Program-made: the position numbers and the translations under genes
Part shown: positions 6,688-47,391 of the stretch, one piece after another
How positions within the stretch are numbered: position 1 is the stretch's first letter
Layout of the letters: each line of letters begins with the position of its first letter
Source: an uncultured Planctomycetaceae bacterium
GTDB taxonomy: Bacteria; Planctomycetota; Planctomycetia; Isosphaerales; Isosphaeraceae
Assembly: GCA_963833985.1 (NCBI GenBank)
Contig: CAWIAD010000002.1
Coordinates: forward strand, 5,408,001-5,472,000
Direction: 5' to 3'
Length of the DNA stretch: 64,000 bases
Notes under the pieces: model-generated
The model's database searches: none
Seen by the model: only the letters and a program-made list of their open reading frames with translations
What the model was told of the DNA's origin: nothing

Positions 6688-6901
6688 GTGGGTCAAGATT
6701 CCAATCTTGACATTAATTGAGATAATCATAAATTGAATTGAAGAGACACGATCGGAATCGTGTCCCACGACAGAAGTGACACGATCGGAATCGTGTCCCA
6801 CGACAGAAGTGACACGATCGGAATCGTGTCCCACGACAGAAGTGACACGATCGGAATCGTGTCCCACGACGGAGGAGACACGATCCCAGGCTTGTACCAC
6901 G
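6688..6901. repeat. REP/REPIN-like cluster: one forward palindrome plus 4 tandem 33-bp inverted copies and one degenerate copy
   Basis: GTGG-GTCAAGAT-TCCA-ATCTTGAC at 6688-6711, an AT-rich spacer, then (GACACGATCGGAATCGTGTCCCACGACAGAAGT)x4 at 6745-6876. Confidence 0.85.
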
Positions 6902-7139
6902 AGGGCAAAGACGTGGTGTTTCCTCAGTTTCTGATTGTTCTCCATTCGGGGCGAACTTCCGGACTCAGTTTCCGCACAACCGGAACTATCATTGAAGGCC
7001 GCAGAGCCGTTGTGTCGAAATCAAGATCAGTTTTCGGTACGCCGCGCCCGTGATCGCGGCCGCCTGGTCCAACCGCGTTGCGAGCGGGCGGTCCCGGGAC
7101 GGCCCCTCGGAGCGCCGGTTCTGGAGGCAAGCCCGGGCC

Positions 7140-12114: not shown

Positions 12115-12230
12115 GACCGAGATCGGGTCGCTGCCGGGACGGCGTTTCCCGGACCTAAGCAGATCCGCAGAAGTCTTTGGACAGGATTGCCGTTCGCTTG
12201 CCCAGGGCTGAGAGCCCTGCCTGGCCGCTC

Positions 12231-12370
12231 TCCTCGTGGGGTACGATTCCAATCGTGCCTTCCCATTCTCGTGGGCTACGATTCCAATCGTGCCTTCCCA
12301 TTCTCGTGGGCTACGATTCCAATCGTGCCTTCCCATTCTCGTGGGCTACGATTCCAATCGTGCCTTCCCT
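12231..12370. repeat. 4 x 35-bp tandem REP-like palindromes
   Basis: (TTCTCGTGGGCTACGATTCCAATCGTGCCTTCCCA)x4, with the same GTGGG..ACGATTCCRATCGTG core as the 6.7-kb cluster. Confidence 0.9.
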
Positions 12371-12563
12371 GATCCATCAGATCGAAGAAGTGGCACGAAG
12401 TAGGGTCGAGGTGTGGCGCGGTGGGCTCGAGTCGATGGCTCGGCTGGGCCTCGTTTCCACACCCCGCTCATCAAACTGGATCGGCGGTTTTCCCGCATCC
12501 AGCTTTCGGACAAGGCTTGTCTCATCGGTTGAGTTCACACGTTCGCTCACGAAACCATCGCGG

Positions 12564-15500
12564 CTAGGTTCGTTGCAGCTGGTAAAGATGCAACTCCTGG
12601 TGCAGGTATCTGTCAGGGTAGCGTCTGAGCCCCTGACCCGGCACCTTGAACTTCGCACACAACCACTGACGTACCCGGTAGCGGACGTGGTGGTTGACTT
12701 GGCGATAGGCTGGGCTCACCGTTCCGATGCGAAAATAGTTGGACCAACCGCGTAACTTGCGATTGATCCGACCAATCTGCATCTCGACGTCCTGTCCAGT
12801 GGTCTGGCGCGTCGTCATCGCACTGATCTCGCTGCACAGCCGAATGATCTTCTTCCGCGATGGGCGTGACCCTATGTAGGATCGGCCCGTTCGTCGGTCG
12901 TAGTTCCGGCCGAGGGTATAACCCAGAAAGTCGAACGTCTCCTCAGGCAGGTGGCACAGCCGCGTCTTGGTCTCGTTCACCGTTAACTTCAGCCTGGACA
13001 TCATCTTCCGCATCACCGTCATGGCCTCTTCGGCCGTGCCGCGACAGCAGATGACGAAGTCGTCCGCATAGTTGACGATTCGCGCGACCAGACGCCGCTC
13101 GTGTCCACCAGTCTTCCATCCCTTCACAAATCGTCGCATGTAGATGTTGGACAACAATGGTGAGATCACGCCCCCAACAATGTTGCGAACTACGTTGTTG
13201 GGGGCCTTTCTCAAAAGGGGACGGACTGACCCGATACACGATGCGGACCTCCTGCTCGTCGATCTCGACCTTCTTCACCAAGGCCCGAACCACCTCCCGT
13301 CGCGTGGCCCAGTCCGGCTCTTGCAACCCTTGCGAGACGCGACGTGCGAACTCCTCCAACTGACCGATCACCAGTCGCAATTCCGCCTCTTGGGCGGCCT
13401 CGCCGATTCGTTGTCGATGCTCCTCCGCCAATCTCGAGAGGCGCGTCCTTGCCGCCGAGATCCGGGGCTCGAACTCCGATTTGTCGAGCAACCCGTCGCC
13501 GTAAGCATCGATTAATCGAGAAATCATCTTTTTCACATTATTTATCAATTTGCCGAGATGCTCCACCTCCTGATTCGGCCCGCCCTGGGCACCCTGCAGC
13601 CGCCGCTCGTACTCCTCCCGGACCCGCTCCGGCTCGGACAGGAGACCTCGTAAGTCCTCCCAGACGGCAGCGTCAAGGATATCGGTGCGGATCTGCTTGT
13701 TCCAGCAGAGGCGCTGCCCGCCGAAACGATAGGCGTCAGAGCCCGTGCAACGGTAGTACGCGTAGCGGACCCTACCCTTGCCCTCGAACGCGGCTCGGCT
13801 CGTCGGCTTGCCGTAGCAGCCGTAGCCGCAGCGCTTGCAGACGACCAGGCCCTGGAGCAGATATCGGCCACCGCCGGGCCGGTCGCGACGGCGTTGCCGG
13901 TTCTCTTCAAGCTGGGCCTGGACAGCCAGGAAGAGGTCTTCGCTCACCAGCCCGGGGACTTCAATGAAGATTTGATCTTCCGAGGATGTATCAACCCGTG
14001 AGACCGGTCGCCGGGAGTGTTCGGGGCGGCCTCGCTGCGGGCGGAGGCGTTGAGGTTTGAACTCACCTGAGCGCGTCTTGCCGAAGGCCGCGGTCCCCTT
14101 GTAGGCAGGGTTCTTGAGGATCAACCAGACCGTCGCGCGATCCCAGGCCGATTTCCCGGTCCGCGTCGGGATACTGTCGCGCCGGAGGCGTCGGCACACC
14201 TCGCCGATCGAGCACCGTTCCTGACCCACCCATTCGAAGATCTTCCGCACGACCCGGGACTCTTCAGCGAGGACCTGATAACGCGCCTCGCCACCTCCCT
14301 CGTGCTTGCCGATGTAACGGTAGCCGTACGGCGCGCCGCTGAGGACGTTGACCGAACCGCGGCGGGCGGCGTGTTGCTTGCCCCTGCGGCAACGCTCCAT
14401 GATCTTGGCGCGCTCGTATTCCGCGATCATTCCCTGGACCTGAAGCAGCAGGTCGGCTTCCGGACTGCGGCCGACGGGGTTGCGCAAGAAGACGACCTCG
14501 ACACCGCACCGGATAAGTTCCTCAAGGATCAAGACCTGATAGGCATACTTGCGTGAAAGTCGATCCGGATCGAGCATATAGAGGCGGTCGATGGCTCCAG
14601 CGGCGGCTTGGTCCCGAAGTCGCTCGAGTGCCGGTCGGGCCAGGATGTAACCGCTGACGCCGTCGTCCACGAAGTGCAGTTCGGGCTCGCATTCCAAGCC
14701 ATCAGTGGCGATCCGCTGAGTGACCGCCTCGAGCTGGCTGGCGATCGTGTCCTCCTTCTCCTGCTGCTCCCCCGAAACCCGGGCGTAGAGCGCCACGCGG
14801 AGATTGTCCGTGATCATGGTTTGTCAAACCCCCCCGACCTTGGACTGGATAGTGTGGACCACAGTCGCGTGGTTGCGGCTGGGTCGCGGCCGATCCAGGC
14901 GCTGCGAAACGACCGGGATCAAGACCTGATATGCACGCGCGATCAATTGCTCCTGAAGCCGAGTGAACTCGAAGTGGCGGGTGACAGGAGGACTGAACGT
15001 GGGCCTCCGTGGGGACGTGATCATGTCGACTCCTCCTCTCCGAGAGCGCGGCCGCCAGCCTGCCTTGGATCGGGATCGAGTCGGGGCTGCCATCCGTGCC
15101 CGTACTTCGGTCGAAGCCGCGATCTGGAAATGACAGAGTCAGGAATCAGGGACGATTTTGCAACATTGTTGGGGGCGTGATCGGTGCACCTTGCGGTGTA
15201 CCCATCCCCTGGTCTTTATTCCGGGTCGTTCGATGGCGCTGCCCCTTCCCGTCGGTTTCTTCCACCGGTGTTTCCAGCCACATCTTGATCAGCCGCAGGA
15301 CGCGACCGTCGCTGATGCGCCGTGACGCCGATTTCATTAACTCGGAATGGGGTATGCTATCGAAATATCCAGATAAGTTCGCGTCCACCACCTCGGTGTG
15401 CCCCGTCTTGAGCAGCCGTTCGACTTCGCGGACGGCGTCCAGGGCGCTGCGCTCCGGGCGGTAGGCGTGTTGTTCCGGCTCCAGGTCGGCCTCGAAGATC

Positions 15501-15877
15501 GGCTCCAAGACCAGCACCGCAGCCATCTGCACCACACGATCCTTGATGCAAGGAATGCCCAGCGGCCTTTGCTTGCCATCCCCTTTGGGGATGTACACGC
15601 GCCGCACCGCCTGGGGTTGATACGTCTCCTTACGAAGTTGTTCCGCCAGTTCGTCCAGCCATCGTTCCTTCCCGGACGCCTCGATGTCGGCGAAACTCTG
15701 GCCGTCGATCCCCGGCGCGCCGCCGTTGGCACGGCAGCGTTCGTAGGCGAATCCCAGAACGTCACGTCGATAAATCTTGTCGTACAGGACGTAGAACCGA
15801 TAGTTGGGCGCGTTCTTCGCTTTGGTGTGCAACGCCGTCTGCAACTTCCCGACCTTCAGTGGAGGTGATAGACTCAC
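12564..15877 (-). CDS. ltrA: Group II intron reverse transcriptase/maturase, interrupted at 13164-15182 (432 aa if rejoined, no endonuclease domain)
   Basis: N-part 15877-15179 (RRVYIPK, RPLGIP, DRVVQ, GTPQGAPI). C-part 13163-12564 (SPLLSNIY, YADD, FDFLGY, LRGWSNYF). The two parts join in frame at GATC. Confidence 0.92.
12943..14817 (-). CDS. Large serine recombinase (resolvase + recombinase + Zn-ribbon + coiled coil)
   Basis: ALYARVS catalytic Ser, DDGVSG..RPAL, DRLSR, APYGY, ILKNPAYKG, LLQGLVVCKRCG, YYRC. The ORF runs past the element end at residue 551. Confidence 0.95.
   Translation of the reverse strand: MITDNLRVALYARVSGEQQEKEDTIASQLEAVTQRIATDGLECEPELHFVDDGVSGYILARPALERLRDQAAAGAIDRLYMLDPDRLSRKYAYQVLILEELIRCGVEVVFLRNPVGRSPEADLLLQVQGMIAEYERAKIMERCRRGKQHAARRGSVNVLSGAPYGYRYIGKHEGGGEARYQVLAEESRVVRKIFEWVGQERCSIGEVCRRLRRDSIPTRTGKSAWDRATVWLILKNPAYKGTAAFGKTRSGEFKPQRLRPQRGRPEHSRRPVSRVDTSSEDQIFIEVPGLVSEDLFLAVQAQLEENRQRRRDRPGGGRYLLQGLVVCKRCGYGCYGKPTSRAAFEGKGRVRYAYYRCTGSDAYRFGGQRLCWNKQIRTDILDAAVWEDLRGLLSEPERVREEYERRLQGAQGGPNQEVEHLGKLINNVKKMISRLIDAYGDGLLDKSEFEPRISAARTRLSRLAEEHRQRIGEAAQEAELRLVIGQLEEFARRVSQGLQEPDWATRREVVRALVKKVEIDEQEVRIVYRVSPSPFEKGPQQRSSQHCWGRDLTIVVQHLHATICEGMEDWWTRAASGRANRQLCGRLRHLLSRHGRRGHDGDAEDDVQAEVNGERDQDAAVPPA
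13164..15182 (-). mobile_element. Minimal serine-recombinase integrative element (2015 bp plus duplicated GATC core)
   Basis: Perfect 23-bp terminal inverted repeats GATCACGCCCCCAACAATGTTGC at 13164-13186 and 15160-15182. Carries two ORFs. Removal restores the RT. Confidence 0.9.
14824..15024 (-). CDS. 66-aa hypothetical protein of the recombinase element
   Basis: Strong RBS GAGGAGGAG before the ATG at 15024. Stop lies 6 nt before the recombinase start. Confidence 0.7.
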   Translation of the reverse strand: MITSPRRPTFSPPVTRHFEFTRLQEQLIARAYQVLIPVVSQRLDRPRPSRNHATVVHTIQSKVGGV

Positions 15878-16534
15878 GCCAATCTCCCGGCTGTCTGCCG
15901 CTTGTTGCGTTGACCTTGAACCAAGGCCCCTTCCCTCGACCGGAGTTACCCGGCGTCGACGGTACTACGGGCCTCTCCGCCACCCCAGGCAGCCCGGCCG
16001 GTCCCTCGCGGGCGTCCGGTTGAGGGTCACGCGCCCTCACCGCTTGGGGTTTCCCGTGTTGTGTTGATCTCCGTGTGCCGACATGCCGTCGTCAATACCC
16101 CGGTGGCCCGCTGGGTTCTGATCGCTCGTGGGGCGGCCTATTCCAACCGTTTCCCTTTCATCCCCAGCGACGGCGGCCTTCCCCATATTCCAGCAAGGTC
16201 GGCGACCACATTGGACTTTTCGAGGCCTGCTCAACGTTCACTCGCGTTACGGCCTGTCGGTTCGCTGCATCGCCAAGCGACACATCTGTCTCGAAGGCTC
16301 CGACGGTTTCGTCTCCTCCACCGCCGCTCCGATAGCTACCGGCTGGAGCGACCCAGTTGCCGGGTGGGAGTTACACCCACTGAAGACCAACACCTTTCCA
16401 CGGCGCACTGGAATCATGTCCCAAGAAGAGCGGCCTCCCGGCCATCCAGGATCGCATCAACCTGCTGAATGCCTGTCAAAGAACTATTGCGAACCTGCTT
16501 AGAGCGGTTATCACTCGGATCGCAGACTGAGACC

Positions 16535-16597
16535 GGGGGCAGGCATTCCTGCCTGCCGGAGCAGGCCTACCCTGGCAGACAGGAATGTCTGCTCCCC
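16535..16597. repeat. Second REP-like inverted doublet
   Basis: GGGGGCAGGCATTCCTGCCTGCC ... GGCAGACAGGAATGTCTGCTCCCC: two internally palindromic arms in inverted orientation. Confidence 0.7.
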
Positions 16598-16691
16598 TTC
16601 CAGGATCTCAGAAACCGCCTGCAACCCGTCAGAAAACCGCCCTAATGCGTTGGCCGGACCAGCACGGCTTTCTTGACCGGGACGCGGGCCT

Positions 16692-21829: not shown

Positions 21830-22024
21830 GACTCGTCCCCCGGGCGCCGCTAGCAGCGTCTTCCGTCCATTGTACGCAGGTCTGGGCTCCAGCCGAACCA
21901 GTCTCCGCGCGTCCTGGTTACAATGGGTATCTCTCGGTGGACATCCCTCGAAGACAGGCGTATACTATTCCTTCCTGGCACTGAATCGTCGAACCGCGGC
22001 AGAATCGAAAGGGACCTTCCAGGG

Positions 22025-28672
<6,648 letters not shown>

Positions 28673-47272: not shown

Positions 47273-47391
47273 TTGGGACAATGTTCTATGCTTGTCACAC
47301 ACAGATATTATTGTGAGAATCTATTTGACTGAGAGAAGAGAGACGTGACAAGAATGGAAGTGACACGATCGGTATCGTGTCCCACGACGGA
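47273..47391. repeat. Third REPIN-like locus of the GTGGG..ACGAT..ATCGTG family
   Basis: GAAGTGACACGATCGGTATCGTGTCCCACGACGGA (about 47357-47391) is nearly identical to the 6.8-kb units. A degenerate forward arm lies at 47273-47296. Located between convergent genes. Confidence 0.8.

Follow-up and report, generated by a model that had tools for sequence, protein, structure and literature searches.

An endonuclease-less, class F-like group II intron in a REP-type extragenic repeat of an uncultured planctomycete

The intron locus and its copies in the host genome

The DNA analysed here is a stretch of 64,000 nucleotides, henceforth the window, from the genome of an uncultured Planctomycetaceae soil bacterium of the Isosphaeraceae (GenBank assembly GCA_963833985.1, contig CAWIAD010000002.1, positions 5,408,001 to 5,472,000), and our subject is a group II intron which lies in one arm of a multicopy repeat of the repetitive extragenic palindrome (REP) type. 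The termini of the intron, GTGCG (5′) and CCCTAC (3′), are those of the other copies in the host genome, the Rfam D1D4-4 model matches at 16242-16382 with 98.9 bits, and the hallmarks of a group II intron are present, namely GUGYG...AY ends, a domain V with the catalytic triad, a domain VI with a predicted bulged A and an open reading frame (ORF) for a reverse transcriptase (RT)/maturase (Table 1). A preliminary description of the locus had taken the 4.0-kb span to be a plain intron, thereby overlooking a recombinase element that splits the RT gene. As the RT gene is split and the RT, compared with that of the intact copies, carries a D-to-N change in its VVDAD motif, the window copy cannot move unaided; the aspartate in question is presumably a catalytic aspartate of the RT.

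Table 1. Features of the intron locus, in positions of the window (EBS, exon-binding site; IBS, intron-binding site)
Feature	Position	Strand	Remarks
Group II intron	12400-16408	-	4009 nt, being a 1994-nt intron plus the recombinase element; Rfam RF02003
Domain V	12473-12505	-	33 nt, 9-bp lower stem, AGC triad; from fold and sequence
Domain VI	12402-12464	-	from fold; predicted bulged A at 12406 (-7), picked by eye from the sequence
RT/maturase gene, 5′ part	15182-15877	-	GTG start at 15877; RVT_1 and TIGR04416
RT/maturase gene, 3′ part	12564-13164	-	YADD, X domain, endonuclease domain absent; RVT_1 and GIIM
EBS1 (UGGAAU)	16187-16192	-	stem-loop, loop by consensus fold; preceded by delta C at 16193
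IBS1 (ATTCCA)	16409-16414	-	last 2 nt of 5′ arm plus 4-nt loop; 6/6 Watson-Crick with EBS1
EBS2 (GUCC)	16213-16216, extendable to 16211	-	pairs with -13 to -10
IBS2 (GGAC, -13 to -10)	16418-16421	-	foot of hairpin; invariant in 13/13 sites
EBS3 (U)	16095	-	pairs with +1 in 45/50 relatives; permuted mean 20, maximum 31
IBS3 (+1)	12399	-	T in the window copy, mismatched to the EBS3 U
Second UGGAAU	16140-16145	-	clade-specific hairpin, not EBS1
Split GGAC-type repeat arm	3′ half 12387-12399, 5′ half 16409-16426	-	flanks the intron
Sister-subtype repeat, four 35-bp units	12233-12369	+	loop shared, GGAC lacking; inverted partner to the split arm
Composite repeat element, ~480 bp	~12150-12399 plus 16409-16640	.	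between convergent genes; two palindrome families
Large serine recombinase element	13165-15181	-	2017 bp; 22-bp inverted ends, which take in the duplicated AT core
Recombinase gene	start 14817, reads out of the element	-	Resolvase, Recombinase and Zn ribbon domains
89-aa ORF in the recombinase element	14824-15093	.	

The repeat unit of 31 nt consists of a GTGG foot, an 8-bp stem and a 4-nt loop, TCCR, and the intron lies at the junction of this loop and the 3′ arm. The intron thus splits the repeat hairpin, as the preliminary description had it, though not at the exact centre of the palindrome, and ATTCCA, which it had read as the loop, includes two bases (AT) of the stem. The joined flanks differ from the repeat copy at 6773-6803 at 5 of 31 positions, the very count originally reported, and the split arm is indeed the inverted partner of the adjacent 35-bp array. 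At no more than seven mismatches the host genome holds 128 matches to the 31-nt repeat as compared to none for the reversed pattern, a census that undercounts the sister subtype because the window's own units near 12.2 kb exceed the mismatch cut-off. The composite element has 30 paired copies in the host genome, 23 of which have spans below 400 nt and are short and empty, and blast depth is 30-60 along the intron flanks versus 1 beyond the element. The target has the traits of REP and REPIN sequences: it is a short palindrome within the 21-65 nt range, present in many copies, extragenic, with a GT(A/G)G foot, and it forms inverted doublets both in the host genome and in metagenome loci. Outside long ORFs lie 21 of the 25 empty target-type copies, and of 13 further genomes of the genus nine contain matches to the repeat. 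Empty GGAC-type units, candidate unused targets, occur in the window at 6740-6904 (four in tandem) and at 47357. The second palindrome family of the composite element (16509-16640) gives 50-60 blast matches and resembles repeats adjoining a Y1_Tnp gene at C1:1082471 of the host genome.

Thirteen 5′ ends and thirteen 3′ ends of the intron, all complete at the ends, were found in the host genome and represent 12 whole copies and one divided over two contig ends, the pairing of which is assumed. Alignment of the flanks of all copies, a check that had been proposed at the outset, placed 12 of the 13 insertion sites (the assumed contig-end pair among them) within seven mismatches of the 31-nt repeat and in one register; nine of the 13 lie inside the composite element. 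The exception is the site of copy E, which is not a REP: it is non-palindromic and has 16 mismatches to the repeat, and it keeps GGAC, GATTCCA and T+2 and pairs fully with EBS1 (6/6) and EBS2 (6/6). The stretch of the composite element that matches this site reads ATTGCC or ATTGCA/G in 15 of 19 readable copies. Eleven of the whole copies are near-identical, a handful of substitutions apart; of the 12, nine have the RT gene split by the recombinase element, two are intact (one of these at C2:1391320-1393313) and one is a deleted intron. The GC skew of the host genome is too flat to reveal a leading or lagging strand bias of the insertions. A diverged, internally deleted copy of 1165 nt at C2:4627313-4628477 contains a fragment of a different recombinase element, and the copy at C2:2143754-2149057 has an extra 1.3-kb insertion in the 3′ part of its RT gene and lies 3 kb from an intact copy. 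This insertion includes a 411-aa transposase-like ORF which we take to be ISAs1-like.

Exon-binding sites and the choice of target

The exon-binding sites were assigned by covariation in a domain I alignment of 69 relatives together with copy K and the window copy; five rows in which the 5′ end was misplaced, the intron was in tandem or the flank was too short were dropped, leaving 66 introns. Pairing with the final six nucleotides of the exon is seen for 16187-16192 at 327 of 396 positions (83%), as compared to a permuted mean of 117 (30%) and a maximum of 159; when the introns are collapsed to 44 types the figures are 222 of 264 versus 77, and pairing drops beyond position -6. For EBS2, 165 of 264 positions are paired against a permuted mean of 94 (the best of eight offsets, the next three being weaker), and among the closest relatives 22-26 of 28 pair at each position. 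EBS3 covaries with the base at +1, which over the 13 sites is A in eight, G in two and T in three. As EBS2 and EBS3 covary in addition to EBS1, targeting follows ordinary IIB base pairing and not the hairpin sensing of IIC introns. The preliminary description had thus correctly proposed a non-IIC intron with an EBS directed at a multicopy extragenic repeat; it had rightly seen EBS1 as a basis of specificity, while leaving out EBS2, on which specificity for the repeat subtype rests.

TGGAAT is present twice in domain I, as had been noted, and the first choice for EBS1 had been the copy at 16140-16145. This candidate was rejected since it shows no covariation with the target (60 of 234 paired, 26%, versus 73 when shuffled): the loop reads TGGAAT in 29 of the 66 introns whatever their target and is missing from 26. 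A search of the intron's non-ORF parts gave no complementary partner for 16140-16145. Folding domain I to locate the EBS1 loop, as had been suggested, was uninformative for the single sequence (z -0.43), whereas covariation gives 16187-16192, which the consensus fold places in a loop. The EBS1 loop carries the same seven nucleotides, UGGAAUA, as the invariant hairpin loop of the clade 47 nt downstream; this match could be due to chance or to a rewriting of EBS1 from that loop.

The selectivity of the intron is evident from the repeat copies that it has left empty. Among 95 empty copies with an intact IBS1, 24 have GGAC and 71 do not, while all nine occupied repeat sites with an intact IBS1 have it (p=1.4e-5); the sister-subtype 35-bp units, which lack GGAC, are nowhere used as targets in the host genome. 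It is because of EBS2 that just GGAC-type arms are hit. Across the genome, GGAC-N3-ATTCCR sites are occupied in nine repeat and one non-repeat cases and empty in 25 and 50, respectively (p=9e-4). An alternative explanation is that the intron retrotransposes with loose specificity into any site with the EBS code, and that the bias for the repeat reflects the survivors after a purge of genic insertions. Consistent with this, 40 of the 50 empty non-repeat sites fall in long ORFs on a crude ORF map, and when only intergenic sites are considered the repeat to non-repeat ratio, 9:1 occupied versus 21:10 empty, is not significant (p=0.24), so that a repeat preference beyond the pairing code is only tentative. 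We nevertheless regard this alternative as unlikely: selection alone leaves unexplained the agreement of EBS1 and EBS2 with the repeat consensus and the location of most clade members in multicopy repeats from other families, and none of the 50 non-repeat sites combines T-15, G-7 and T+2, each of which is found in 13 of 13 occupied sites.

The palindromic nature of the target raises the question of the hairpin itself. Recognition might be aided by an extruded DNA hairpin, with the repeat loop contacting the EBS1 loop on single-stranded DNA in the manner of a IIB/IIC hybrid, and it is in keeping with such an aid that IBS1 spans the whole 4-nt loop, that a GGAC-type unit folds at -8.6 kcal/mol versus -5.3 for two GGGT-type units, and that relatives L020 and L069 also lie in long palindromes. 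Such a contribution appears quite improbable, however, as most of IBS2, together with part of IBS1, would be buried in the hairpin once it had formed, and most of the relatives' reconstructed sites have no comparable hairpin. The 71 empty same-loop hairpins without GGAC show that a hairpin with the right loop is not enough, and the occupied site of copy E, which has no palindrome, that it is not needed. Hairpin sensing of the IIC type as the main mechanism was rejected on the covariation of EBS2, the insertion inside the hairpin and copy E. Class C (IIC) introns have a short domain V with a CGC triad. The long domain V with its AGC triad had been read as speaking against IIC, and this held: membership of class C was rejected on the 33-nt AGC domain V, an EBS1 of about 6 bp, the covarying EBS2 and the insertion inside the hairpin.

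It is very probable that a IIB intron which is class F-like and lacks an endonuclease uses ordinary base pairing to retrohome into a single arm of a REP-type doublet. The hairpin loop, along with the two preceding stem bases, would be read by EBS1, the GGAC at the foot of the hairpin by EBS2 and the next base by EBS3. Outside the repeat this code, together with T-15, G-7 and T+2, would hardly ever be found; the intron may thus spread among intergenic repeat copies at little cost. Priming at replication forks is established for endonuclease-less introns (PMC4424553, in the part accessible) and may serve here too. The window copy and eight others have lost their own RT to the recombinase element, which targets the PQG-x-x-ISP codons of intron RT genes, and their further movement would need protein supplied by the two intact copies, or excision of the element. 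Several observations weigh against this reading. The EBS3 pair is mismatched in 3 of the 13 copies, the window copy included, and EBS1 pairing is poor in copy K and has two mismatches each in copies A and D. Permutation p-values overstate the covariation because the relatives are kin and not independent samples, although in the aligned sequences the contrast between the two TGGAAT loops is plain despite this kinship. The count of empty sites that satisfy the full code and also have T-15, G-7 and T+2, 24 in the repeat and none outside it, is partly circular since these three bases were taken from the sites themselves. Finally, the EBS1 version of the window intron was found in none of 120 other genomes of the family, and intron junctions in none of the 120 metagenome loci of the repeat listed, so that this pairing of repeat and intron rests on one genome.

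The nested serine recombinase element

The element that splits the RT gene has the traits of a large serine recombinase element, with three recombinase domains and a crossover at a 2-bp core without any longer duplication; the recombinase frame meets no stop codon before leaving the element, and open frames of 575-626 aa result depending on context. Short-read contigs span both element junctions with zero differences; four public DNA sequencing runs supported the junctions and gave no sign of splicing. The host genome contains 11 whole copies, nine in introns of the window type and two solo, and in the nine (of 12 whole introns) the element lies at one nucleotide, in one orientation in seven and inverted in two. 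Among 26 related loci in other genomes the end sequence is common to 20, of which 17 (in eight genomes) split an RT gene at PQG-x-x-ISP codons, as counted by eye and in one case from a flank alone. Judged from the sequences at these sites, the element specialises in the RT genes of group II introns. In loci L293 and L300 the same RT half lies on both sides of the element, which suggests rearrangement between copies. A literature search, which had most subscription journals outside its reach, returned no report of PQG-x-x-ISP RT codons as a recombinase target, and RTs are not mentioned as recombinase targets in the accessible text of PMC10083194.

It is possible, if not the account we favour, that intron and element moved together, the 4.0-kb composite retrohoming as a unit by means of intact RT supplied in trans, so that the intron would carry its own parasite. 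This would account for the single position of the element in nine of the 12 whole copies, for the association of intron position 1245 with element orientation (C in all seven same-orientation split copies, A in both inverted and both intact copies), and for the D-to-N change shared by two split copies at different sites. The element, however, evidently inserts at its motif independently, as seen in the 17 of 20 related loci in RT genes, where both orientations occur. The single-nucleotide polymorphism (SNP) markers moreover conflict, with an element SNP joining copies C and I and intron SNPs joining A and C, and gene conversion or assembly polishing could blur the haplotypes, which fit neither co-movement nor independent insertion decisively.

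Protein class, intron clade and known systems

The intact copies encode a 432-aa RT-X protein in which just RVT_1 and GIIM were found, the endonuclease domain being absent. Its identity is 51.6% to Ni.ha.I1 and 30-37% to references of g1, g2, class D and unclassified introns. Placement of the RT in a phylogeny, another of the proposed checks, grouped the protein with class F: all relatives join Ni.ha.I1 as sister with a Shimodaira-Hasegawa-like approximate likelihood ratio test (SH-aLRT) value of 95, in a quick tree of 55 rows with a long-branch warning. The intron thus groups with class F on its protein sequence, in a tree without class E or named class C references. Ni.ha.I1 is assigned to class F, group g3, in Table S2 of PMC3552965.

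Among the intron's named relatives the closest are found in Planctomycetota, many of them in Isosphaeraceae, and the window protein falls in a 20-row clade (SH-aLRT 99). The clade was taken from the tree; a cut-off on 5′-end identity split it and was not used for the main count. By eye, 15 of the other 19 rows have GGG(A/T)C just upstream of IBS1, three have variants and one is a tandem intron, and outside the clade this foot is present in one of 26 labelled rows, that row being a nested intron. Several of the targets in the clade are themselves multicopy: one motif is matched 154, 31 and 153 times in the L001, L018 and L020 genomes (controls 9-11) and 56 times in genome G006 (control 7); a second has 34 in G011, 27 in G006, four in the genome of L012 and none in that of L015; a third has 17, 12, 7, 3 and 1 per genome, and a fourth 8-26 in five genomes. 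Three of these families, or a fifth (that of L059), adjoin Y1_Tnp genes: L143 and L147 have inverted pairs with a spacing of about 730 bp, and two genes of the host genome are surrounded by inverted arrays. In L083 a Y1_Tnp match starts 33 nt past the intron. The GGG(A/T)C foot fits the published end consensus of TIRYT elements, GGGGWSAS (PMC3733652 and PMC6006769, in the parts accessible). These sequences are suggestive of a clade in which EBS2 stays on the GGG(A/T)C foot and EBS1 has been retuned to other repeat families, at least five in number. Relatives L018, L019, L060 and L074, and L016, L065 and L110, include head-to-tail intron pairs and introns nested in introns.

Tentatively, this planctomycete-centred class F clade may be specialised on repeats spread by Y1 transposases of the TIRYT/RAYT type, with EBS2 locked on a GG(A/T)C foot and EBS1 rewritten for each family, the intron riding on the proliferation of the repeats and, in the host genome, also ferrying the RT-targeting recombinase element, which would make three nested layers of selfish DNA. 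Against such specialisation, L068, which lies outside the clade, also abuts a Y1 gene, and multicopy targets are not unique to the clade, as one outgroup lineage has 21-31 target-like sites per genome, of a more degenerate pattern; two further outgroup lineages, of Acidobacteriota, have 0-3 site copies per genome. The EBS1 version is moreover absent from the 120 other family genomes despite the occurrence of the repeat in congeners, and a Y1 gene flanked by the window's own repeat was not found: none of 37 Y1 loci (all seven of the host genome, and 30 of 91 matches in five relatives) adjoins it, nor did 27 Y1 queries match any of the 120 metagenome loci of the repeat, among the matches listed. 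An ORF at L182:47-859, about 600 nt from one metagenome copy of the repeat, has no Pfam match; its family gives 30 tblastn hits in the host genome, about 77% identical across copies, of which just one lies within 3 kb of a repeat. The family's CAYIDLNP motif is, as we presume, reminiscent of Y1-type nucleases. In the Acidobacteriota lineage of L048, L050-L052 and L054, the target motif (21-31 matches per genome) could encode NGDFS and is possibly a repeated coding motif.

As far as the accessible parts of the sources go, the closest precedent is RmInt2 of Sinorhizobium meliloti GR4, a class D intron in the inverted repeats of ISRm17 (PMC4615759). RmInt2 is likewise an endonuclease-less IIB intron with an EBS1/EBS2/EBS3 code, and it increases its copy number by homing into a multicopy inverted repeat; its tolerance of a 4-pair EBS2 and its conserved T-15, both shown experimentally, and its EBS3 U are all shared by the window intron. 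The two differ in protein class (31% identity to a class D reference) and in target, which is a short non-coding palindrome family here and the ends of an autonomous insertion sequence (IS) for RmInt2; in addition, the clade of the window intron, unlike RmInt2, has switched among several repeat families. Ni.ha.I1 resembles the window intron in its RT-X protein of 432 aa without endonuclease and its length of about 1990 nt, and is located in an IS4 transposase gene; repeat targeting is not reported for class F in what is accessible of PMC3552965. IIC introns found after terminators or attC hairpins (PMC7923331, PMC12584367) also use intergenic hairpin-forming sites and avoid genes, but they insert downstream of the hairpin with an EBS1 of 3-4 bp and no EBS2, whereas the window intron lies inside the hairpin and has a 6-bp EBS1, an EBS2 and a long domain V. 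ISPpu9, ISPpu10, ISPa11, ISPsy8, ISRm19 and ISRm22 (PMC1525189) similarly occupy one fixed REP position as a safe landing pad, by means of DNA transposases and not of intron RNA, and a group II intron of P. putida lies near REPs in just two of nine copies (PMC1525189). The GTGG foot and inverted doublets of the window repeat recall the GT(A/G)G REPs, and the GGG(A/T)C of the clade's targets, several of which flank Y1_Tnp, fits the terminal inverted repeat consensus of TIRYT/TIRtron elements (PMC3733652, PMC6006769); for the window repeat no cognate Y1 gene was found in the genomes and listed loci searched. The accessible portions of these two papers make no mention of introns inside TIRYT/TIRtron or GT(A/G)G REP repeats, nor that of PMC7306698 of palindromes or repeats, and the literature search, within its reach, found no report of a group II intron homing into REP/TIRYT repeats. 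Elsewhere in the window, at 21923-27900, two adjacent UvrA-like coding regions are 72-80% alike and may represent a split gene or a tandem pair.

The targeting chemistry is that of an ordinary IIB intron, applied to a target of an undescribed kind. An intron lineage can keep a supply of landing sites that would be harmless to its host if it reads short non-coding repeats which another enzyme multiplies. The host genome offers a natural control for this, with 95 empty same-loop repeat copies of which just 24, those with GGAC, are of the targeted kind, and the clade represents a collection of natural cases in which EBS1 was retargeted and EBS2 stayed fixed, through which the targeting rules of class F become testable. 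The system also suggests a tool for multi-site intergenic insertion in planctomycetes.

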